Positions 14,963 to 59,829 are shown, numbered from the stretch's first letter. The stretch: 59,881 nucleotides of DNA from an uncultured Acidobacteriota bacterium (GCA_964613495.1 CAZTHE010000007.1:1-59881); one strand, 5' to 3'. The notes: generated from the letters alone by a model not told the origin. Program-made: numbers and translations.

Positions 14963-15043
14963 TAGATTCCAGATTCCAGATTCCAGAGGCAGCCCCAATC
15001 TGGAATCGGGAATCTGAAATCTGGAATCCGGAATCTGAAATCC
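14963..15043. repeat. heptamer-repeat locus 3: inverted arrays forming a ~24-bp-stem hairpin between convergent genes
   Basis: TAGATTCCAGATTCCAGATTCCAGA, a 9-nt spacer, then AATCTGGAATCGGGAATCTGAAATCTGGAATCCGGAATCTGAAATCC. It fills the whole proS/MBL intergenic gap. Confidence 0.85.
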
Positions 15044-34537: not shown

Positions 34538-36379
34538 TCAGAAAGAATCGGTGATCCGGGACGGGCCTTCCTTGACGTTTTCCGCGGGATTGCGGCCCAC
34601 GATGTAGTCGCCCGTCACCATTTCGCGGTACCCCATGCCCGGTCCCACCATGGGGTAGACGCAGGCGTCCGGGTCGATCATGACTTCGAGAAACGCGGGT
34701 CCCTTGAAGGCCACGAATTCCCTCAGCATCTCCTTCAGCCTTGCCTTGTCGGTCACCCGGGCGGCGAATTCGAATCCATCGGCCTGGGCCGTCTTGACGA
34801 AATCCTTGACCCGCAGGGACTTGTCCGATCCCGAGAAACGCTTTCCGAAGTAGATTTTCTGCCACTGCCGCACCATGCCGTCCCCGAGGTTGTTGAGAAC
34901 CAGGATCTTGACCGGCAGGCCGTAGGTTGTCGCCGTCTCGAGTTCGCCCAGGTTCATGCGCATGCTGCCGTCGCCGTCGATATCGACGACCAGCCGGTCG
35001 GGATAGGCCATCTGGGCGCCGATGGCTGCGGGCAGCCCGAATCCCATGGTGCCCATGGAGCCGGAAGTCAGGAAAGACCGCGGGTGTTTCACCTGCAGGT
35101 ATTGGGCGGCCCACATCTGGTGCTGTCCCACGCCGGTACACATGATGGCGTCCCCGCACGTGATCTCGTTGAGGCACTCGATCACGTAAGGCGGCTGAAT
35201 GGCCTCGCTCTCGCGGTTGTAGTTGAGGACGTGGTTTTTCTTGAGTTCCGCCACATGGGCCAGCCACCCGGAAAAATCCTTGCGGAAACTCCCGCTGCCG
35301 CGCATCAGGTCGCCGAGCGCCTCGCGCGCGGATCCGACGTGAAACCAGTTGACCGACTTGACCTTGCCGATCTCGGCGTCGTCGATGTCGATATGCGCGA
35401 AGAAGCGCGCGTGCGGGGCGAATTCCTGAACCTTGCCGGCCACGCGGTCGTCGAAGCGCGCCCCGATCGTGATGAGGAAATCACAATCCACGACGGCGTA
35501 ATTGGCGTACGCCATGCCGTGCATGCCCAGCATGTGGAGCGAAAGCGGGTCCGTCGTGTCCACCGCGCCGATGCCCATCAGGGTCGTCACGACCGGTATC
35601 TGGAACCGCCTCGAGAATTCGCGCAACGGTTCCGCCGCGTCACCGCAAATGATCCCGCCGCCCGCGCAGATGAGCGGACGCTCGCTCCGCCCGAGCAGGT
35701 CGAAGAATTCCGCGCAATCTTCCTCCGTCAGCCGCGCCCGGGAGAGGGCTTGCATCCGGTTCTCATATCCCCGGAAGCGGTAGGTGCCTTCGCCCTTGAA
35801 TACCCCCTCCCAGTTCTGAACGTCTTTGGGGACATCGATGACGACCGGGCCGGGTCGTCCGCTCTGCGCGATTTCGAACGCGGTGCGCACGATGCTCTCC
35901 AACTGCTCCGGCTCCTCGACGAGGAACACGTGCTTGGCGCAGGAACTCATGACGTTGAAGACCGGCGCTTCCTGGAAGGCGTCGGTGCCGATGGCGTTCC
36001 GGGCAACCTGTCCGCAGATCAGCACGACCGGCACGGAGTCCGCCATGGAGTCGCGAATGGGAGTGACGCTGTTGGTGGCGGCGGGTCCGGACGTGACGAT
36101 GAAGACGCCGACCTTTCCGCTGGCCCGGGCATATCCGGCCGCCATGAAGCCCGCGCCCTGCTCGTTTGCGGGCACGATCAACTGGATCTGTTCGCTGCGG
36201 TTCGTCTCGTGTTCGACGTTGTAACGGAAAATGGCGTCGTAGGTGGGGAGGATGGCTCCCCCGGTATAGCCGAAGACGGTGTCGACTCCCTCCTGCGCGA
36301 GGACCTCTATGATCATTTCGGCGCCGGACATGCGCTTGCCGGCGAGCGGGTGGCATCCCTTTTTAATCTCTGCGTTCAT
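34538..36379 (-). CDS. ilvB: acetolactate synthase (AHAS) large catalytic subunit
   Basis: 613 aa. ThDP-enzyme motifs are GAEMIIEVLAQEGVDTVFGYTGGAILP, GPAATNSVTPIRDSMADSVPVVLICGQV and GSMGFGLPAAIGAQ...DGDGSMRMNLGEL. It starts 27 nt downstream of ilvN. Confidence 0.9.
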   Translation of the reverse strand: MNAEIKKGCHPLAGKRMSGAEMIIEVLAQEGVDTVFGYTGGAILPTYDAIFRYNVEHETNRSEQIQLIVPANEQGAGFMAAGYARASGKVGVFIVTSGPAATNSVTPIRDSMADSVPVVLICGQVARNAIGTDAFQEAPVFNVMSSCAKHVFLVEEPEQLESIVRTAFEIAQSGRPGPVVIDVPKDVQNWEGVFKGEGTYRFRGYENRMQALSRARLTEEDCAEFFDLLGRSERPLICAGGGIICGDAAEPLREFSRRFQIPVVTTLMGIGAVDTTDPLSLHMLGMHGMAYANYAVVDCDFLITIGARFDDRVAGKVQEFAPHARFFAHIDIDDAEIGKVKSVNWFHVGSAREALGDLMRGSGSFRKDFSGWLAHVAELKKNHVLNYNRESEAIQPPYVIECLNEITCGDAIMCTGVGQHQMWAAQYLQVKHPRSFLTSGSMGTMGFGLPAAIGAQMAYPDRLVVDIDGDGSMRMNLGELETATTYGLPVKILVLNNLGDGMVRQWQKIYFGKRFSGSDKSLRVKDFVKTAQADGFEFAARVTDKARLKEMLREFVAFKGPAFLEVMIDPDACVYPMVGPGMGYREMVTGDYIVGRNPAENVKEGPSRITDSF

Positions 36380-36406: not shown

Positions 36407-36976
36407 TTATCGCGTAGCCGGCGCGTCTGCAGCGCCGTTCCCGTTGATTTTGCCGGCCAGGTTGCGGTTCAGGGCGACTTTCCCGGTCCGCACCATCTCG
36501 TCGATGCCGTAAGGGCGCACGACGTCGAGAAACGCTTCCACCTTGCCGGAGTCGCCGGTGACTTCGAACACGTAGTTTTCGGGGGTCGCCGTGACGACAC
36601 GGGCCCGAAAAATCTCCGCCTCGGTCAGCAGCGTGGTCCTTTTCCCCTCAGGCGCCCGGACGCGAACGAGGATCAGTTCCCGTTCGACACAATTCATGTC
36701 GGTCAGGTCCGCTGCTTCCACCGTATTCGGAAGCTTGTTGACCTGTTTCAAGATCTGCTGGGCCAGGAGCGGCTCGCATCGTACGACCATGGTTATCCGG
36801 GAGAGGCCGGGATCGGAACTGCCGGCCACCGTAAGGCTTTCGATGTTGTAGCCGCGCGCGCTGAAGAGTCCCGCGATCCGGGAGAGTACTCCGAACCGGT
36901 TCTCGACGAGAATCGAAAGCGTGCGCGTGCCTCTCGGGCCATCGGTTTTCGAAGTCTGTGAACTGGCATCTGTCAT
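36407..36976 (-). CDS. ilvN: acetolactate synthase small regulatory subunit
   Basis: 189 aa with the ACT domain RTLSILVENRFGVLSRIAGLFSARGYNIESLTVAGSSDPGLSRITMVV. AGGAGA lies 10 nt upstream of the ATG at 36976. The ORF-track start at 37273 reads through the leader region. Confidence 0.88.
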   Translation of the reverse strand: MTDASSQTSKTDGPRGTRTLSILVENRFGVLSRIAGLFSARGYNIESLTVAGSSDPGLSRITMVVRCEPLLAQQILKQVNKLPNTVEAADLTDMNCVERELILVRVRAPEGKRTTLLTEAEIFRARVVTATPENYVFEVTGDSGKVEAFLDVVRPYGIDEMVRTGKVALNRNLAGKINGNGAADAPATR

Positions 36977-37008
36977 GGTGTGTGTCTCCTGTACAATTTT
37001 TCGTTTCA

Positions 37009-37050
37009 TAAAACAAAAAGGGCCGTCAGCCCGGTTCGGGTGACGGCCCC
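37009..37050 (-). terminator. intrinsic terminator of the ilv leader (attenuator terminator)
   Basis: On the minus strand: GGCCGTCACCCGAACCGGGCTGACGGCC (outer stem GGCCGTCA/TGACGGCC, inner CCCG/CGGG) followed by CTTTTTGTTTTAT. It lies 33 nt upstream of the ilvN ATG. Confidence 0.7.
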
Positions 37051-37083
37051 AAAAATCCCATTTTGCCGCCGTCACCCGAACCG
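37032..37083 (-). promoter_or_regulatory. antiterminator (15-bp perfect alternative pairing) of the ilv attenuator
   Basis: On the minus strand, CGGTTCGGGTGACGG (37083-37069) is perfectly complementary to CCGTCACCCGAACCG (37046-37032), which is the 5' half of the terminator hairpin. Confidence 0.65.
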
Positions 37084-37173
37084 TGCAATTCCGGTAAGGA
37101 TGCTTACATTTACTATGAGTACGATTCCTACGATGACGGGCAGTAGAATACCTCGAAGGATGCAATTCCTCAT
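37072..37173 (-). CDS. candidate ilv leader peptide, 33 aa (MRNCILRGILLPVIVGIVLIVNVSILTGIARFG)
   Basis: Found by hand translation; it is below the ORF-track length cut-off. It has 7 Ile, 5 Leu and 5 Val in 33 codons, many of them AT-rich codons (ATT, ATA, CTA, GTA) unusual for this GC-rich DNA. The TGA stop (37074-37072) lies inside the antiterminator 5' arm. No clear SD precedes the ATG. Confidence 0.55.
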   Translation of the reverse strand: MRNCILRGILLPVIVGIVLIVNVSILTGIARFG

Positions 37174-37248
37174 CTGGGAAAATGAAGAGACCATGCTCAA
37201 CCCGTCCGCTTGCCCTTCTCGTTGCGCCTCTGCTAAACAGTAGGAATA

Positions 37249-37278
37249 AGCCTAGCAGGCGGCGTTTGTGCATGTCAA
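37249..37278 (-). promoter_or_regulatory. candidate sigma70-type promoter of the ilv leader/ilvNB operon
   Basis: On the minus strand: TTGACA (37278-37273), an 18-nt spacer, then TAGGCT (37254-37249). It lies about 75 nt upstream of the leader ATG. Confidence 0.3.
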
Positions 37279-37393: not shown

Positions 37394-38281
37394 ATGGGTC
37401 GTGGGCGGAACGAGGCCGGGGATTCGACCAGGGCCGCCTGGCGCCGGCACGAGCGCCGCTGGAAGGAAAACCGCTACGTGTATGCGGTGGTTTCGCGGAG
37501 AAGCCGCGGCGTATCCATCGGCCTGAATCTGAATCCGGACAGGCGGTGCAACTTCGATTGCGTCTATTGCCAGGTGGACCGCACCGAGCCGCCGCCGGTC
37601 CGAAGGGTGAGCCTCGAGGCGCTTTCCGAAGAGCTCGACCAAATCCTTCAGGCCGAGAGAGACGGGTCGTTGTACGAGGATCTCCCCTTCCGTGCGCTGG
37701 CCCGTGAGGAGCGCGGCATCCGGGATATCGCGTTTTCCGGCGACGGCGAACCCACTACCTTCCGGAGGCTGGAGGGCGCAGTCCGTGTGGCGGCCGCGGC
37801 GCGGCGGCGGTTCGGCTTGGATGCGGCGGCACTGGTGCTGATCACGAATGCCTCGTGTCTGGGCAGGCCTCCGGTGCGCGCCGCGCTCGCCGCGCTGCAC
37901 GACTGCGGCGGCCAGGTATGGGCGAAGCTGGACGCCGGGACCGAGGAGTACTTCCGCGCGATCAACCGGACGAGAATCCGGTTCGCACGGGTCCTGGACA
38001 ACATCCTGTCTGCGGCCCGGGCGCATCCGCTGGTGATTCAGTCGCTTTGGGCCGGGATCGGGGGGGGCGCGCCGGCCGATGCCGAGATCGAGGCGTACTG
38101 CGGCCGCCTGAGCGCGCTGATCGCCGGAGGCGCGCAAATCCGGGGAATCCAGATTTACACGGTCGCCCGCACCCCGGCGGAGGCTTGCGTCTCCCCGCTT
38201 CCCGACGCCGCGCTGGACCATATCCGGTCCCTGGTGGAATCGCGCGCCGGACCGCCCGTCTCCGTCTACTATTCCCCGTGA
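37394..38281 (+). CDS. radical SAM protein
   Basis: 295 aa with a canonical CNFDCVYC (CX3CX2C) and FSGDGEPT. GGGGGTGAG lies upstream of the ATG. Confidence 0.75.
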   Translation: MGRGRNEAGDSTRAAWRRHERRWKENRYVYAVVSRRSRGVSIGLNLNPDRRCNFDCVYCQVDRTEPPPVRRVSLEALSEELDQILQAERDGSLYEDLPFRALAREERGIRDIAFSGDGEPTTFRRLEGAVRVAAAARRRFGLDAAALVLITNASCLGRPPVRAALAALHDCGGQVWAKLDAGTEEYFRAINRTRIRFARVLDNILSAARAHPLVIQSLWAGIGGGAPADAEIEAYCGRLSALIAGGAQIRGIQIYTVARTPAEACVSPLPDAALDHIRSLVESRAGPPVSVYYSP

Positions 38282-48931: not shown

Positions 48932-50077
48932 TCAGCCGCGTCCCCGGTTGATATGAACGACCCGGGCCGGGGGAAACCCGTTGAACCAGGTCGAGGAGGC
49001 GTGCGTGTATGCGCCGATTTTTTCGCTGTAGACGAGGTCTCCGAGCTTTAGCTCCGGGAGTTCCTCGGCCTGTGAGATGGTATCCAGGGCGTCACAGGTG
49101 GGTCCGAATACGGCCGAAATGCGTTTGCGTCCCTTTTTGAACGCCTTCAGGTGGTACTGGCAATGGTCGAACAGGATGCCCGAGAAGGTGTGATAGATTC
49201 CGTCGTTGATGTAGTAGCACCGCTTGCCGTCGCGCTCGGACTTTCCGATGACCTCGGCCACCAGCGTCGCCGCGGTCCCGACCATGTATCTTCCGGGTTC
49301 CGCGAGGATTTCGAGGCTCCTGGGGAACAGGCGGTTCAGTTCCGTGCTCAGGATGCGTGCCAGCTCGCGGAACGGCCGGACGTGCCGGTCGTAGCGCGCC
49401 GGGAACCCGCCCCCGATGTCGAGCAGTTTCAGGGAAATCCCCCGCCCTTCGGCCTCTTCCATAATGGAGGCCGAGATCGACAGCGCCTGCACGTAATTTT
49501 CGAAGTTGGTGCACTGGCTCCCGACGTGGAATCCCATGCCTTCCAGCGTCAGTCCCGCGTCCGCGGCCGCCGCGAGCAGGTCGACCGCTTCGCCCGGGGC
49601 CGCGCCGAATTTGCTGGAGAGTTCGACCATCGATCCGGTATTGGGAACCCGGATGCGCAGGACCAGCCCGGCATTGGGCGCATGCTTCCGGATCTTCTGG
49701 ATCTCCTCGGCATTGTCGAATGCTACCAGCGGCCGGTACGTGTCCAGTTCCTCCAGCGTGCGCCGGTCCTTGATCGGGTTGGAGTAGACGATCTTGTCCC
49801 AGATAAACTCCTGGCGGACGTCCGCGGGCAGGTCCCGGATGTTTTCGTATACCAGGTTGAATTCGGCGATGGACGCGACGTCGAAGCTGGCGCCCGCGTC
49901 GTACAGAGTCCGGATGATCTCGGGATCGGGATTCGCCTTCACGGCGTAATACGCCTGGACCCGCGGCAGGTAGCGCCTGAACGCGGTGTAGTTGCTGCGC
50001 ACGGCATCGTGGTCCACGACAAACAGCGGTGTCCCGTGTTTCTGGGCAAGCTCCCTGAGTTGGCTCGTTTTGACCAT
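48932..50077 (-). CDS. type III PLP-dependent (ornithine/lysine/arginine) decarboxylase, ODC fold
   Basis: 381 aa with TPLFVVDHDAVRSNYTAF ... AYYAVKANPDPEIIRTL ... DIGGGFP ... GPTCDALD. Confidence 0.8.
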   Translation of the reverse strand: MVKTSQLRELAQKHGTPLFVVDHDAVRSNYTAFRRYLPRVQAYYAVKANPDPEIIRTLYDAGASFDVASIAEFNLVYENIRDLPADVRQEFIWDKIVYSNPIKDRRTLEELDTYRPLVAFDNAEEIQKIRKHAPNAGLVLRIRVPNTGSMVELSSKFGAAPGEAVDLLAAAADAGLTLEGMGFHVGSQCTNFENYVQALSISASIMEEAEGRGISLKLLDIGGGFPARYDRHVRPFRELARILSTELNRLFPRSLEILAEPGRYMVGTAATLVAEVIGKSERDGKRCYYINDGIYHTFSGILFDHCQYHLKAFKKGRKRISAVFGPTCDALDTISQAEELPELKLGDLVYSEKIGAYTHASSTWFNGFPPARVVHINRGRG

Positions 50078-50151
50078 GGTTCCGCGCGTCGCACGCCCGG
50101 GGAGGCTTCGGAGGCGCCATGCGGCGCCTCCCTCCCGGCATGCCGAATGGG

Positions 50152-51309
50152 TTACAGTTGTTTGTTGTGCTTCCAGTATTCGGTCGTGACCAGCTCCATG
50201 ATTTCCGGGAGCTTGTCATAGAGGCGTTTGAGTTTCCGCGGCCGGCACTTGGCCATGGCGTAGTGGACGAGCAGCGGAAACGCGACCGTCGAATCGACGT
50301 AGCAGACGACGGCGTCGGGCAGCTGCATCGGATCGACCTTGCCCCATGTGACGGCCTCGTGGGGCGTGGCGCCCGACAGCCCGCCGGTGTCGGGCCTGGC
50401 ATCGGTGAATTGGATGAAATAGTCGTGCCCTTCCTCCTTGACGCGCAGCACTTCCTGGATCTGCGGTTCCGTCTGGAGGGTGAAGTTCTTGGGAGACCCG
50501 CCGCCGATCAGGAGCGTTCCCGTCTTCAGGCCGGCGCGTTTGGCGGCCAGCACGATCCCGGTCGACTCGTTCACGTCGCGCGAGGGGTTGATGCGCAGGG
50601 CGTTGTCGCGCAGCTCCAGGCCGGCGATGTTCATGCCGATGGTGGAATCGCCGGGAGACGGGCAGAAACAGGGCACGCCGGCGCGGTAGGCCGCGGCCAG
50701 AACGGAGCTGTTTATGCGTCCGGTCTGCTCCTCGAACTCGGCGCAGTATTTCCCCAGCAGGTAATGCAGTTCCGTCGTGCCCATCTCATGCTGGAATTCG
50801 GGCTGCATGAGGATCTGCCGCAGCACATGATCCGTGGCCATGAGGACGTCGTTGTAATCGAGAAGGATGTCGTAGATCCGCACGACGCCCAGCCTCCGGA
50901 GTTCCGGGTCCGGGGAGAAGGGCGAGCCGCGGAAGAGCGGCATGTTCATCGCGTGGTGCATGTCGTGGTAGAGATTCGCGCCCGTAGACACGATCCAGTC
51001 CACGAATCCCGCATTGATCAGCGGAATGACGGCGGCGGACCCGATTCCGGCCGGCGTCATCGCTCCCGACAGGCTCATGCCGACGGTGACTTTCGGCTGC
51101 AGCATTTTTTCGGCGAACAGGCGGCACGCTTCCTGCAGGCGGCCGGCGTTGTAGGCCAGGAACGTGTCGTCGATGAGGTCTGCCGCCGATTCCTTGCCGG
51201 AAATCGGCTTGGGCAGAATGCGCTTGCCGCGCAGGAACTGCTGCTTGCCTTTCGAAAACTTGTGGGGATATTTGCTGACGAATCTCTTGGGCAATTTGAC
51301 GTTACCCAT
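50152..51309 (-). CDS. deoxyhypusine synthase-like protein
   Basis: 385 aa with [30 protein letters not shown] and [22 protein letters not shown], all DS-family motifs. Confidence 0.8.
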
Positions 51310-52249
51310 GGCTGCGTCTCCTTTGCGTTGTCCTGCCGCTTCCGATCAGGGTGTAGGAAAAGAGTTTATAGACGAGTTTGGCCGCCAGGAAGTCCGGCGC
51401 CCGGAATCCCGGGATCGGGGCCAGCTCGACCACGTCGAAGACGGGCACCCCGGCCGCGTTCGCGCAGACCGTCCGGGCGATATCGAGCATCCGGTCCCAC
51501 GAAATGCCGCCCGGTTCCGGCGTTCCCACCGCCGGCATGATCGACGGATCCAGGCCGTCCAGGTCGACGGTCAGGAAGACGAGCTTCTTTTTCACGAACC
51601 GGGCCAGGTCTTTGAGGAATCCGCCCCGCGGATCGTTCGCCTCTTCCGAAAACACCGTCCGGATATGCCGGGTGCGGCGCATGAAGGCCGCCTCCTCGCC
51701 CGAAAAGTTCCGGATGCCGATCTGGAATATCGGGCAGCATTCCTGGATGCGCTTCGCCGCGCAGGCATGGCTGTACGGCGAGCCCTCATACTCCTCGCGC
51801 AGGTCCGCGTGCGCGTCCACGTGCACGACAACCAGCGATTCCGGGTGCAGCGCGCGCACCAGGCCGCGCACGACGCCGCCGGAAATGGAATGCTCGCCGC
51901 CCAGCACCCCCAGGACCTTCGGGCGGCGCTTGCCGGACAGCAGCTGCGCCACGCCTTCCTCCACGGCCCCGATCATAGCCTCGGGGGAGCGGTGCACCAG
52001 GTTCAGCGCGGAGGTCGTGTGGATGCCGTATTCCATGGCGGGCTCGCAGCCGAATTCGCGGTCATACAGCTCCACCTGGCGCGATGCGGCCAGGATCGCC
52101 GCCGGCCCTTCCCGCGTCCCCGCCCCATAGGATGTCGTCGATTCGTAGGGGATGGGCAGGAGCCAGCCGCGCGCCTTTGCCGGATCCGACATTTCCTCCG
52201 GCAATCCCAGAAAATTCCATGGAGTCTGAAACAGATCGTGTCCGGACAT
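51302..52249 (-). CDS. speB: agmatinase (ureohydrolase family)
   Basis: 315 aa with [20 protein letters not shown] and [23 protein letters not shown]. It overlaps the DHS-like gene by 8 nt. Confidence 0.85.
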
Positions 52250-52330
52250 CAGGCAACCCCCGTGCTGGTAAGAGGAAATACACGAAGACTATCTTCGTGC
52301 GTTTCCTCGCCCGGTGTCAACCGTCAATCC

Positions 52331-53431
52331 TTAATTGGAGGCCCTGCCGAACGTCCCCTTCGCCGTCGCGATGTTTTTCTTTGCGGGCTCCTTCGGGCGC
52401 AGCATGCGGGTGGCCTTCCCCGCCAGCCACATTTCGGAATTCGCGATGACGTTCAGCTCCTTGGTGAGCTGCTGCTGGTAGTCCGGTTTTCCGCACGACT
52501 GCAGGACGCGCTTCGTTTCCGCGCCCGAGGCGACTCTTTTGTAGAGTTCGTCGAACAGCGGTTTGACCGCTTTGCGGAATTTCGGCTTCCAGTCGAGGGC
52601 GCCGCGCTGGGCGGTGGCGGAACAGTTGGCGTACATCCAGTCCATACCGTTTTCGCTCACGAGGCGGATGAGGCTTTCGGTGAATTCCTCGACCGTCTCG
52701 TTGAAGGCCTCGCTCGGGCTATGGCCGTGCTTGCGCAACACTTCGTACTGCGCCTCCATGACCCCCGCGATCGCGCCCATGAGCACGCCGCGTTCGCCGG
52801 TCAGGTCGCTGTAGACCTCATTTTTGAAGGTCGTGGGGAACAGATATCCGGAGCCGACGGCGATGCCCAAAGCCAGGCAGCGCTCGCGCGCGCGGCCGGT
52901 GGCATCCTGCTCCACCGCGAAGCTCGAGTTGATTCCGGCCCCCGAAAGGAAGTTCCTGCGCAGGGACGTGCCCGAGCCCTTGGGCGCGACCATGATCACG
53001 TCGACGTCTTTCGGGGGGATGACCTTGGTCTGATCTTTATAGACGACGGAGAAGCCGTGGGAGAAATACAGCGCCTTGCCCGCGGCCAACCGCTTCTTGA
53101 CGATCGGCCAGATGGCGCGCTGTGCCGCGTCGGACACCAGCATTTCGATGACCGTCCCGCGTTCGCAGGCTTCCCCGATTTCGAACAGGGTTTTGCCGGG
53201 AACCCAGCCGTCCTTTTTCGCGCGGTTCCAGTCCTTCATGTACTTCTTGGACTGCCCGACGATTACGTTGAAGCCATTGTCCTTCATGTTCAAGGCCTGC
53301 GCCGGTCCCTGGACGCCGTAGCCGATCACCGCGATCGTTTCGCCCTTGAGCACCTTGCGCGCCCTGGACATGGGAAATTCCTTCCGCGTGACAACCTGTT
53401 CCTTGACTCCTCCAAAATCGATCAGCGCCAT
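52331..53431 (-). CDS. ilvC: ketol-acid reductoisomerase
   Basis: 366 aa with IAVIGYGVQGPAQALNMKDNGFNVIVG ... YFSHGF ... and C-terminal knotted-domain motifs. The RBS is AAGGAAAGGAAAG. Confidence 0.9.
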   Translation of the reverse strand: MALIDFGGVKEQVVTRKEFPMSRARKVLKGETIAVIGYGVQGPAQALNMKDNGFNVIVGQSKKYMKDWNRAKKDGWVPGKTLFEIGEACERGTVIEMLVSDAAQRAIWPIVKKRLAAGKALYFSHGFSVVYKDQTKVIPPKDVDVIMVAPKGSGTSLRRNFLSGAGINSSFAVEQDATGRARERCLALGIAVGSGYLFPTTFKNEVYSDLTGERGVLMGAIAGVMEAQYEVLRKHGHSPSEAFNETVEEFTESLIRLVSENGMDWMYANCSATAQRGALDWKPKFRKAVKPLFDELYKRVASGAETKRVLQSCGKPDYQQQLTKELNVIANSEMWLAGKATRMLRPKEPAKKNIATAKGTFGRASN

Positions 53432-53596
53432 GATTGCTTTCCTTTCCTTGATAGTAAGCCGTCGACCAATGGCTTCAGATAAGATTCATGGGAATGTTTT
53501 TTATAAGTCATTCTCCCCGTTGGTTCAAGGTCATATTTCGGTCATAGTGCGGCCGGCCCTTCCCATCCATCCCCCGTTCCACCTGCCGGAATTACG

Positions 53597-53678
53597 GTGA
53601 CAGTCACCATAACCTCGAAATTATTTCAGGCCGGAAGCCGACACCGGAGGAATTTCGAGGTTATGGCGCCTGTCACCG
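53597..53678. repeat. 82-bp near-perfect palindrome in the divergent ilvC / dehydrogenase intergenic region
   Basis: GGTGACAG-tca-CCATAACCTCGAAATT, a 28-nt centre, then AATTTCGAGGTTATGG-cgc-CTGTCACC. The core is a 16-bp perfect inverted repeat with 8-bp outer arms. Confidence 0.85.
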
Positions 53679-53724
53679 AAATTATATGATAGCATCCGGC
53701 TGGAAATTGGTACGGGGGTGCACG

Positions 53725-54729
53725 ATGAAAGCATATGAGATTCAAAAATTTGGCCTGGACGGCCTGAAAATGGCGGAACGGGATCAACCGGAGCCCGGGC
53801 CGAACCAGGTATTGGTTCGGATGCATGCCTGGTCTCTGAATTACCGGGATTTATTGGCGCTCGCCGGACGATATAATCCGCGCATGAAGCTTCCGCAGAT
53901 ACCCCTGTCGGACGGAGCCGGGGAAGTCGTCGCAGTCGGTTCAGAAGTAAGGAGCGTCCGGTGCGGGGCCCGCGTCGCCAGCACCTTCTTCGAGCGATGG
54001 GTGTCCGGAATCGCGACCGATGATTCGGCACGAACGGCGCTGGGCGCCGGACGGGACGGTGTCCTGGCGGAATATGTCGTGCTTCATGAAGATGGCGTCA
54101 TTCCGGTCCCGGATCACCTTTCCTTCGAGGAGTCGGCCACGCTTCCGTGCGCTGCCGTAACCGCCTGGAATGCCCTCGTGACGGAAGGCGGCATCAAGGC
54201 CGGAGAAACCGTTCTTACGCTTGGGACGGGCGGCGTTTCCGTCTTTGCCCTCCAGTTCGCCCTGCTGCACGGGGCCGAGGTATTCATAACCTCGAGCAGC
54301 GACGAGAAGCTGGCCAGGGCGAGGGAGTTGGGCGCTTCGCATGCAATCAACTACAAACAGACTCCCGAGTGGGGAGACGCCGTCCGGCGGTTGACCGGCG
54401 GGCGCGGCGTGGATCATGTGGTGGAACTCGGCGGGGCCGGGACGTTCAACCGGTCGGTCGCCGCTTTGCGACGGGGAGGCAGGATGAGCCTGATCGGCGT
54501 CCTTGCGCAGGGAGGGGAAGCCAATATCCTCTCGGTCCTGATGAACAGCATCCGCGTACAGGGATTCTTTGTCGGCTCGAGGGAAGTGTTTGCCTCCATG
54601 AATGCCGCCATCGCCCTGCACCGCCTCAGGCCGGTCATCTACAGGACTTTCGGCTTCGGGGAGGTTTCGGACGCAGTTCGACTGATGGAAAGCGGGCAGC
54701 ATTTCGGCAAGATATGCATCCGCATGTAG
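53725..54729 (+). CDS. NAD(P)-dependent zinc-type alcohol dehydrogenase / quinone oxidoreductase (MDR superfamily)
   Basis: The start is at MKAYEIQKFG. It has HAWSLNYRDL ... PLSDGAGEVVAVG ... GTGGVSVFALQFA. Confidence 0.8.
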   Translation: MKAYEIQKFGLDGLKMAERDQPEPGPNQVLVRMHAWSLNYRDLLALAGRYNPRMKLPQIPLSDGAGEVVAVGSEVRSVRCGARVASTFFERWVSGIATDDSARTALGAGRDGVLAEYVVLHEDGVIPVPDHLSFEESATLPCAAVTAWNALVTEGGIKAGETVLTLGTGGVSVFALQFALLHGAEVFITSSSDEKLARARELGASHAINYKQTPEWGDAVRRLTGGRGVDHVVELGGAGTFNRSVAALRRGGRMSLIGVLAQGGEANILSVLMNSIRVQGFFVGSREVFASMNAAIALHRLRPVIYRTFGFGEVSDAVRLMESGQHFGKICIRM

Positions 54730-58244: not shown

Positions 58245-59591
58245 GTGCCCGTGGAACCCAAAACCAGCACTCCCGTCGAGATCAGCGAGCTGATCGACCA
58301 AAGAAAACTCACTTCCGTGCAGTTCACGGTCATGGTGTTGAGCGCCCTGGTCGTCTGGCTGGACGGATACCATATCCAGACCATGGCCCTCGTCGTCCCG
58401 ACGCTCGCCTCGCAGTGGTCCGTCAAATCCGAGGACTTCAAGCTCGTGCTGGCCTCCGCCCTGCTGGGGATCGCGGTGGGAGGGGTATTCATCGCTCCCC
58501 TGGGGGACCGGTTCGGGCGCCGCATCCTGCTGGTTTTATCGATGGCCGTCATCGGCATCGCCTCCATCGGGACGGCGTACTCCTCCAACATGACGCAGCT
58601 TTTCGTCTGGAGGTTCCTGACGGGCCTGGGGCTCGGCGCCAGCCTGACCAACGCCACGGCGCTGACTTCGGATTATGTGCCGGCCCGGAGGCGTGCGGCC
58701 CTGGTGACGCTGATGTTTTCCGGCGTTCCCATCGGCGCGTTCACGGCAGGATTTGTCGCGCCGCTCATCATCCCGGCATTCGGCTGGGAAGGGATGTTCA
58801 CGATCGGCGGCGTGTTGCCCCTGTTCCTCTGCGCCGTCCTCGCCCTGCTGATTCCCGAATCCGTCAAACTGCTGCTCGCGAGCAGGCCGAAAGACCCCCG
58901 CATCCCGAAGATCCTCGGGAAGCTGGCCCCGGATGTCGACGCGCGGAGCGTCTATGCGAGAAAATCCGAGGTGCGCCGTCAATCCGTCGCCGAACTCCTG
59001 CGCGCGCCCTATAAAACGGGCACGCTGCTGCTCTGGTTCGTATTCATTTTCAACATGTTCATCCTCTACCTGCTGGTGAACTGGCTGCCGACGATACTGC
59101 GCACGCAGGGCTGGACCGCATCGAGCGCGTCGCAGGGGACCGGCATGATTCAGGCCGGCGGCGTATTCGGCGGCCTCCTGTTGTCCTTGTGCGTGGACCG
59201 GGGGAAAACGGTGAAGGGTATGATTTCGGCGTACCTGGTGACCGCGGTCGCGTTCGGGTTGTTCGCCGTCCTGTCGTCCGAGGGGCCGTCCTGGTGGGTG
59301 CTCCTGTTCGTCGTCGGCAGCGGCATCTCCGGCAACCAGTTTGCGCTCAACGCCCTGTCGGCGACCTTCTATCCGCCGCTGATCCGCGCGACCGGGATCG
59401 GCTGGGCGGCGAGCGTCGGCCGGATCGGGGCGGTCCTCAGCCCGATCATCGGCGGCTGGATCCTGCAGATGCACGTGGCGCCGTTTGCGCTGCTGGGAGG
59501 ACTGGTGATCCCGGTGCTGCTGTGCGCCGGCGGCGTGCTCATGTTCCGGAACATCTTCCAGCCGAAATCGGATTCCGGCGCGCCCGTGTAA
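58245..59591 (+). CDS. MFS transporter (aromatic-acid/H+ symporter-like, 12 TMS)
   Basis: 448 aa with a GTG start. It has LGDRFGRRILLVLS (motif A) and an AAHS-like N-terminal pattern (LDGYHIQTMALVVPTLASQW). Confidence 0.75.
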   Translation: MPVEPKTSTPVEISELIDQRKLTSVQFTVMVLSALVVWLDGYHIQTMALVVPTLASQWSVKSEDFKLVLASALLGIAVGGVFIAPLGDRFGRRILLVLSMAVIGIASIGTAYSSNMTQLFVWRFLTGLGLGASLTNATALTSDYVPARRRAALVTLMFSGVPIGAFTAGFVAPLIIPAFGWEGMFTIGGVLPLFLCAVLALLIPESVKLLLASRPKDPRIPKILGKLAPDVDARSVYARKSEVRRQSVAELLRAPYKTGTLLLWFVFIFNMFILYLLVNWLPTILRTQGWTASSASQGTGMIQAGGVFGGLLLSLCVDRGKTVKGMISAYLVTAVAFGLFAVLSSEGPSWWVLLFVVGSGISGNQFALNALSATFYPPLIRATGIGWAASVGRIGAVLSPIIGGWILQMHVAPFALLGGLVIPVLLCAGGVLMFRNIFQPKSDSGAPV

Positions 59592-59793
59592 CGGGGCCGC
59601 TTCCGGGGATCAGGGCCCGCGCCGGAATATCCATTTGCAAATGCGGAAGCCCTGTGGCACTGTAAGCTTGCCGGAGAGTTCGAGCCCATGGTTCAGAGCA
59701 CGATTGCCGCATTGTCAAGCATCCAGATCGCCATTATCGGCATTACCGGGATTTCGCCCGGCGGATAGCGGCTCGCACCGGTGCGCGCACCGA

Positions 59794-59829
59794 GCCCTCA
59801 TCTGCCAGGCGGATGAGGGCTTTTTTTTT
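59794..59829 (+). terminator. intrinsic terminator
   Basis: GCCCTCATC-tgccaggcg-GATGAGGGC followed by T9. Confidence 0.75.

Follow-up and report, generated by a model that had tools for sequence, protein, structure and literature searches.

A probable leader-peptide transcription attenuator upstream of ilvN-ilvB in a clade of uncultured Acidobacteriota

Introduction

In Escherichia coli, acetolactate synthase is controlled by the leaders of the ilvGMEDA operon (ilvL) and the ilvBN operon (ivbL), which sense several branched-chain amino acids at once. In both cases, a leader ORF with runs of Ile, Val, and Leu codons, mutually exclusive hairpins, and a U-tract precede the first gene. The trp attenuator of E. 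coli is built on alternative 1:2, 2:3, and 3:4 pairings; it has regulatory codons that overlap segment 1 and a stop codon near segment 2. Acidobacteriota are abundant in soils and wetlands, and to our knowledge almost nothing is known about gene regulation in this phylum.

Outside the Proteobacteria, a leader-peptide attenuator of branched-chain biosynthesis genes has been described for the ilv-leu operon of Staphylococcus aureus (PMC5794164). The ilvB leaders of Actinobacteria carry a short ORF with runs of Ile, Val, and Leu codons that overlaps or precedes a poly-U terminator (PMC1262725, PMC11857589, PMC10272879). An earlier note on the DNA studied here had regarded such attenuators as undescribed in GC-rich lineages, which is not the case: ilvB leader peptides with terminators are known in Corynebacterium, Mycobacterium, and Streptomyces (PMC1262725, PMC11857589). 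For a similar ilvB leader of Streptomyces coelicolor, mutation of the candidate regulatory codons reportedly left regulation unchanged (cited in PMC1262725). According to a survey from 2010, hardly any of the attenuators predicted in Acidobacteriota had a function assigned to it (PMC2965389). No published description of a leader-peptide attenuator in Acidobacteriota was found in a literature search in which subscription journals were thinly covered. Here, we describe the region upstream of ilvN-ilvB in an uncultured Acidobacteriota bacterium and its relatives, which very probably acts as a ribosome-mediated transcription attenuator.

Results

Gene context and layout of the ilvN upstream region

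The window, that is, the whole stretch of DNA analyzed, comprises 59,881 nt from an uncultured Acidobacteriota bacterium (GCA_964613495.1 CAZTHE010000007.1:1-59881) and has a G+C content of 63%. Both acetolactate synthase genes are located on the minus strand, the small-subunit gene first, which is the reverse of the usual order with the large subunit before the small one. The elements upstream of ilvN and the two genes are as follows, in the direction of transcription:

37273..37278, minus strand: −35 hexamer TTGACA, at least 90% conserved across related loci
37249..37257, minus strand: extended −10 element TGcTAGGCT (hexamer TAGGCT at 37254-37249, spacer of 18 nt from the −35 hexamer)
37201..37211, minus strand: degenerate Shine-Dalgarno region of the leader, AAGCGGACGGG (in relatives GGAGGACGGG)
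37072..37194, minus strand: leader ORF of 40 codons plus TGA, MVSSFSQMRNCILRGILLPVIVGIVLIVNVSILTGIARFG, with an ATG at this place in most of the 64 relatives
37092..37102, minus strand: segment 1, CAUCCUUACCG, codons S-I-L-T-G, predicted to pair with the 5′ part of segment 2
37068..37083, minus strand: segment 2 or arm A, CGGUUCGGGUGACGGC (= CGGTTCGGGTGACGGC), which holds the leader stop codon
37032..37047, minus strand: segment 3 or arm B, GCCGUCACCCGAACCG, partner of segment 2 (antiterminator) or segment 4 (terminator)
37020..37028, minus strand: segment 4 or arm C, UGACGGCCC, the 3′ arm of the terminator hairpin 37049-37020
37010..37019, minus strand: U-tract T5GT4, a T-run being present in 64/64 relatives
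36985-36990, minus strand: AGGAGA, Shine-Dalgarno sequence of ilvN as read in the sequence
36407..36976, minus strand: ilvN/ilvH, acetolactate synthase small subunit, ATG at 36976
34538..36379, minus strand: ilvB, biosynthetic acetolactate synthase large subunit

The gene 3′ of ilvB encodes a thiol peroxidase. The 5′ neighbor of the putative attenuator is a radical-SAM gene (37394-38281) in divergent orientation, so that there is no gene upstream whose terminator the element could be. Between the end of the U-tract and the ilvN start codon there are 33 nt, in which no promoter-like site was found on the minus strand, so that expression of ilvN depends on read-through. The order of radical-SAM gene, attenuator, ilvN, and ilvB, sometimes followed by tpx, is conserved among related loci, and ilvN is located upstream of ilvB wherever both genes are present in a related locus (68/68; L001 and the L081-L160 set). 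An ilvC-like gene is inserted between ilvN and ilvB in L140, L156, and L160.

Conservation in related loci

Relatives were collected by scanning a genome collection with the full ilvN and then metagenomes with its clade-specific C-terminal half, because the universally conserved peptide pattern of the full ilvN drew mostly sequences of other phyla. Among the matches listed, the closest genome was L001, the MAG of an uncultured Acidobacteriota bacterium from peat, with 84% identity in ilvN; the genome-collection matches listed after it were at most 56% identical and belonged to other phyla. The metagenome scan yielded 80 more loci, and about 72 of the 81 Acidobacteriota loci contained enough upstream sequence to be judged. 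Protein homologues were 78-91% identical and, where labelled, came from Acidobacteriota. The habitats of the clade are peat, wetlands, sediments, and termite guts.

A unit made up of promoter, leader, antiterminator, and terminator precedes ilvN in 64 distinct loci, all from uncultured Acidobacteriota (ilvN 74-90% identical). Shared by these 64 upstream regions are a variable N-terminal half of the leader, an Ile/Val/Leu core, a terminal RFG, the stop codon in arm A, arms B and C, and the T-run. Judged from sequence, this pattern, in which the N-terminal half varies while the Ile/Val/Leu core and the paired sequence are kept, is as expected of a leader. The earlier note had predicted that the short ORF and the alternative pairings would be conserved in relatives, with covariation in both stems; the conservation was borne out in the 64 loci, and the covariation is limited (see below).

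Six loci, mostly from termite-gut metagenomes (L143, L144, L146, L147, L158, L159), have neither leader nor terminator. This termite-gut subgroup has lost the two jointly and kept ilvN-ilvB. As to the sequence in front of ilvN in these loci, a TTGACA/−10 promoter directly precedes the gene in L143, and in L146, L147, and L158 ilvN follows a gene ending in GEQLPRIC at a distance of about 50 to 190 nt.

Putative promoter and leader peptide

The promoter-like pair pointed out in the earlier note, TTGACA and TAGGCT 18 nt apart, is present at 37278-37273 and 37254-37249 and conserved in relatives. A TG one base 5′ of the −10 hexamer makes it an extended −10 element, and the relatives keep a (C)TGnTAGGCT or TAnnnT motif at unchanged spacing.

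The same note had described a leader ORF of 33 codons (37173-37075, TGA at 37074-37072), in which Ile, Leu, and Val make up 17 of the 33 residues and 9 of the 11 core residues. Its composition and its stop codon stand; its start does not. The ATG at 37194 lies seven codons 5′ of the ATG at 37173 in the same frame and is most likely the leader start, giving 40 codons rather than 33, of which 18 are Ile, Val, or Leu codons. Most relatives likewise have exactly 40 codons. In most of them, GGAGGA or GAGGA is located 9-10 nt 5′ of the conserved leader ATG, whereas the window has AGCGGAC where relatives have GGAGGAC and keeps only GGAC. The Shine-Dalgarno sequence that had been reported as missing thus seemed absent because the downstream start had been chosen; the copy in the window is indeed degenerate. 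In L148, L149, and L156 the leader ATG follows the −10 box by only about 9-10 nt, and the leader peptide would therefore be made from a nearly leaderless mRNA.

A search of both strands of the 59.9 kb for stop-to-stop frames 12-90 codons long showed the leader to be the sole one with at least 8 of 10 residues being Ile, Leu, or Val. Its AT-rich codons are as conspicuous as had been claimed: GC3 is 0.50 compared with 0.72-0.94 in the genes of the window, and GTA accounts for 4/6 Val codons, while its share of the genomic Val codons is 4%. CTT, CTA, ATT, and ATA codons also occur. Among the relatives, GTA makes up 55% of the Val codons in leaders versus 14% in the adjacent ilvN genes.

Over the last 25 leader codons of the 64 loci, Ile, Val, and Leu together account for 51% of the residues (Val 19%, Ile 19%, Leu 12%), compared with 3% for Ala and 0.3% for Met. 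The leader peptides contain almost no Ala, Met, or Trp, and Phe is found almost solely in the final RFG, the residues of which are near-invariant (R 63/64, F 62/64, G 64/64). The N-terminal half is variable and unconserved; the core is always rich in Ile, Val, and Leu and close to LPVIVGIVLIVNISILTG in relatives. Even in the most divergent loci, where the leader is otherwise unrecognizable, the Ile/Val/Leu run is kept (e.g., MLIQRQNSWNTGRALFLSVVLVLIVGVIIPVRVKRFG and MIALDLRRFLSTISNAPRYLVVVIIVAISILSRVPRFG). A second Ile/Val/Leu leader was found neither in the window, including the region upstream of ilvC (52331-53431), nor in the related loci. As a positive control, the same scan detected Ile/Val/Leu-rich short frames upstream of the small-subunit gene in loci of other phyla, among them MKDFFKNLLPAVVLVVVVVIVVVVVVPSGGIFL in a Brevinematales MAG.

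Predicted alternative RNA structures

Arm A, CGGTTCGGGTGACGG(C) at 37083-37068, is the perfect complement of 37047-37032. The two arms form the second longest inverted repeat in the 59.9-kb window. What the earlier note had read from the sequence is found here in full: the stop codon (37074-37072) lies within the 15-mer that is complementary to the 5′ half of the downstream hairpin, and the hairpin (37049-37020) is followed by the T-run (37019-37010), AGGAGA (36990-36985), and the ilvN ATG (36976). The stop codon is located inside segment 2 in 64/64 loci. A comparison of the two alternative folds, which that note had proposed, gave −35.9 kcal/mol for the antiterminator (z = −6.1 vs. shuffled sequences) and −26.5 kcal/mol for the terminator (z = −4.8 vs. 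shuffled sequences).

In alignment A1, 93.9% of the cells are paired in the 2:3 antiterminator (18-53% with the partner columns slid) and 97.2% in the 3:4 terminator (16-57% with the partner columns slid). The consensus structure calculated with RNAalifold is the 2:3 antiterminator, which was thus found independently. Several changes are compensated: in the antiterminator, C-G is replaced by U-A in 5 sequences and column pair 19:59 is either A-U or G-C; in the terminator, A-U is replaced by G-C in 5 sequences and one more pair is changed on both sides. A synonymous TTC to TTT change in the leader is compensated in segment 3. Covariation is limited to 2-3 pairs per helix that change on both sides, as the arms hardly vary. 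Such near-invariance is expected, since segment 3 pairs with both segment 2 and segment 4 and segment 2 is also coding. As the sequences are related, the shuffle controls overstate the significance of the pairing.

Segment 1 can pair with the 5′ part of arm A, which would give the four-segment layout of a classical attenuator. The 1:2 hairpin is predicted in 64/64 loci and has 9 pairs with an internal loop (approximately −13 kcal/mol). In alignment A2, 88.8% of its cells are paired (18-50% with the partner columns slid), and its covariation does not exceed that of shuffled sequences. Since divergent relatives use a shifted 1:2 register, single sequences were instead folded against shuffles; z was −2.4 for the window hairpin and as low as −4.6 for those of relatives in the main class, and in several divergent loci the hairpin was not better than the shuffled sequences.

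A simple terminator scanner detects only the inner 5-bp hairpin, the terminator loop being above its limit. Its terminator-like matches across the window were not enriched over shuffled sequence, and it was therefore left out of the evidence. Elsewhere in the window, canonical intrinsic terminators occur, among them a strong one (59792-59822, a 14-bp stem followed by T8) behind a gene ending at 59591, from which it follows that the organism uses hairpin-plus-U terminators.

Folding with the ribosome at different positions

For all 64 loci, the transcript as far as the U-tract was folded, varying the part that was masked and considering equilibrium folding only. With the ribosome at the stop codon, the terminator was kept in 64/64 loci. 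It was kept in 8/64 when the ribosome covered segment 1, in 41/64 when the ribosome was stalled further upstream, and in 50/64 when there was no ribosome. The equilibrium picture is that of a classical four-segment attenuator with termination as the modeled default state. Most of the Val and Ile codons are located upstream of segment 1; if the four-segment equilibrium model is applied strictly, the 1:2 pairing survives a stall at these codons, so that termination would be favored in the 41/64 loci. The 1:2 pairing leaves 7 nt at the 3′ end of segment 2 (UGAYGGC) free, and these are the exact complement of the first-transcribed part of segment 3.

The copy in the window deviates in its balance. 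Its antiterminator is the most stable of the 64 (−39.3 kcal/mol vs. a median of −30.6 kcal/mol), its arms carrying GGG and GAC where most relatives have GGA and GAT, and the read-through fold is slightly favored without a ribosome. These properties and the degenerate Shine-Dalgarno sequence suggest that the window copy may be leaky, i.e., less tightly shut off than those of its relatives.

Database searches and other features of the window

All 4227 models of Rfam release 15 were scanned, including whatever amino acid leaders, ilv-associated motifs, T-boxes, and riboswitches the release contains. Between 36000 and 38500, at E-values up to 10, only a spurious microRNA match was obtained (16 bits compared with a gathering score of 245), and at gathering thresholds there was no match in the whole window. 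T-box, riboswitch, and known-leader families were rejected on the basis of this lack of Rfam matches at the locus and in the window.

The longest inverted repeat of the window (53590-53683) has 33-nt arms that are 91% complementary and a 28-nt loop, and is unique there. The genes on either side, ilvC (52331-53431, minus strand) and a zinc alcohol dehydrogenase gene (53686-54729), diverge from the spacer in which the repeat is located. Neither a T-run behind this repeat nor an Ile/Val/Leu leader upstream of ilvC was found; the repeat could be an operator or a 5′-UTR structure for ilvC. On the same strand, the region 48932-53431 contains, after ilvC, genes of the arginase, deoxyhypusine synthase, and ornithine/arginine decarboxylase families, by which a polyamine-type cluster adjoins a branched-chain amino acid gene. 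Between two convergent genes, runs of the heptamer GATTCCA with nested inverted repeats were observed (14964-15036).

Discussion

The element upstream of ilvN-ilvB is, with high probability, a ribosome-mediated (leader-peptide) transcription attenuator that controls these two genes, as the earlier note had proposed from one sequence. This reading draws on the sequence anatomy and folding energies, the unit kept in 64 loci, the leader-like way in which it is conserved, and the fact that leader and terminator were lost jointly; from these we infer promoter activity, translation of the leader, and a response to the amino acid supply. The following parts of a classical attenuator have their counterparts here: a promoter and a leader translation start, represented at the sequence level by the conserved TTGACA-N18-TGnTAGGCT, GGAGGA, and ATG; a short ORF rich in the amino acids that the pathway produces; a predicted intrinsic terminator between the leader ORF and the first gene; an antiterminator that shares a strand with the terminator, the two folds being mutually exclusive; and, in equilibrium folding, a ribosome position that selects the fold. 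Most likely, the attenuator lets the bacterium turn on its acetolactate synthase genes when Ile, Val, or Leu is short.

In the proposed mechanism, transcription would start a few bases past TTGACA-18-TGcTAGGCT, and the 40-codon leader would be translated while RNA polymerase advances. With an ample supply of charged Ile, Val, and Leu tRNAs, the ribosome would reach the TGA in segment 2 and mask this segment; the 3:4 hairpin with the U-tract could then form, and transcription would terminate 33 nt before ilvN. A ribosome delayed on the Ile, Val, and Leu codons, many of which are rare, would leave segment 2 free to capture segment 3 in an antiterminator of 15-16 bp, and the polymerase would read into ilvN-ilvB. 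Segment 1 (I-L-T-G) may serve as a classical protector or pause hairpin. Alternatively, it may form a weak helix that segment 3 displaces, starting at the unpaired UGAYGGC with which segment 2 ends. Such a strand invasion, by which any delay before the stop codon would give read-through, appears equally plausible as the four-segment model.

A switch between the two folds might also be real and be set by an RNA-binding protein, a small RNA, or Rho, with the Ile, Val, and Leu codons not acting as the sensor, a view that has been argued for the ilvB leader of S. coelicolor. We consider this unlikely, though it is the best-placed of the alternatives. The invariance of the arms makes recognition by a protein conceivable, most Ile and Val codons lie upstream of segment 1, and the codon mutations in the S. 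coelicolor ilvB leader had no effect in the work cited in PMC1262725. The invariance is, however, expected anyway from the two partners of segment 3 and the coding function of segment 2. A switch operating without the ribosome is also at odds with a stop codon placed inside segment 2 in every one of the 64 loci, with an Ile/Val/Leu run that persists where the leader has otherwise changed wholly, with the retention of rare Val codons, and with the conserved Shine-Dalgarno sequence and 40-codon length; T-box and riboswitch families gave no match.

Less probable still, to a degree that makes it a marginal option, is that the ORF stands alone as a gene with its own promoter and terminator, encoding a small hydrophobic membrane peptide, e.g., of the type I toxin kind, and that its position before ilvN is incidental. 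A peptide of 40 residues would be hydrophobic enough for one membrane helix, and a promoter, a small ORF, and a terminator are the layout of a small-protein gene, too. Yet such a gene would leave ilvN without a promoter of its own between terminator and start, and the antiterminator would be purposeless. The element was always upstream of ilvN in the 64 loci, with no other copy in the window or these loci, and it is leader and terminator that are lost together while ilvN-ilvB stays. For a functional membrane peptide, the unconserved N-terminal half and a composition specific for Ile, Val, and Leu, with almost no Ala, Met, or Trp, would be unexpected, and conservation follows the RNA pairing down to the compensated synonymous TTC to TTT change. 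A chance combination, in an AT-rich spacer, of an ordinary terminator-like hairpin and an ORF that arose fortuitously has a negligible probability and is already effectively refuted by conservation and pairing across the 64 loci. In its favor, it might be cited that the scanner's matches are no commoner across the window than in shuffled sequence; the folding z-scores (−4.8 to −6.1), an Ile/Val/Leu-rich frame unique in 59.9 kb, and the second-longest inverted repeat of the window speak against it as well.

With leader-peptide attenuation as the preferred reading, the mechanism is a textbook one and the understanding of attenuation is unchanged; what appears to be new, judging from a literature search with thin coverage of subscription journals, is its description in Acidobacteriota. 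The locus provides a concrete, testable cis-regulatory element for amino acid biosynthesis in this phylum, and its value lies in annotation and in access to acidobacterial regulation by experiment, not in mechanistic surprise. The alignment of 64 sequences could be the seed of an RNA family for the annotation of metagenomes, and gene callers should not report the 40-codon ORF as a hypothetical protein. A bolder proposal, which we put forward only tentatively and think rather doubtful, is that the element represents an undescribed, phylum-specific family of branched-chain amino acid attenuators that sets acetolactate synthase regulation in a widespread clade of uncultured Acidobacteriota, with a logic that may depart from the textbook. 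If so, the 1:2 pairing would be only a timing hairpin, and segment 3 would invade from UGAYGGC; read-through would follow from any delay on the rare Val and Ile codons that form the long run upstream, and the default of a leader that is not translated would be ON, not OFF. The near-invariant RFG-stop would then matter for the dwell of the ribosome on the free end of segment 2.

Among the described systems, the E. coli ilvL and ivbL leaders resemble the element in the Ile/Val/Leu run of the leader, the exclusive hairpins, the U-tract, and the acetolactate synthase genes downstream. There is no similarity to them in sequence or by covariance model, and the element differs in its host phylum, in the order of ilvN before ilvB, in the stop codon inside the 5′ arm of the antiterminator, and in the near-invariant RFG end of the peptide. 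With the E. coli trp attenuator it has in common the alternative 2:3 and 3:4 pairings and a stop codon close to or in segment 2, and a 1:2 pairing that overlaps regulatory codons is predicted; it differs in the amino acids concerned, the short 1:2 helix (approximately −13 kcal/mol), the 7-nt free end of segment 2, and the many codons upstream of segment 1. The leader of S. aureus ilv-leu is Leu-rich and acts together with CodY, whereas in the one described here Ile and Val prevail, and nothing in it implies a protein regulator.

The ilvB leaders of Actinobacteria, i.e., the three-hairpin attenuator of ilvBNC in Corynebacterium glutamicum and the leaders in Mycobacterium and Streptomyces, are similar in that an Ile/Val/Leu ORF and a terminator occur in GC-rich genomes. 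They are not homologous in sequence, and they precede an ilvB-N-C operon, in contrast to ilvN-ilvB in the Acidobacteriota. Some of the actinobacterial leaders lack a clear antiterminator or a response to codon mutation, whereas four segments are recognizable here, segment 1 as a candidate.
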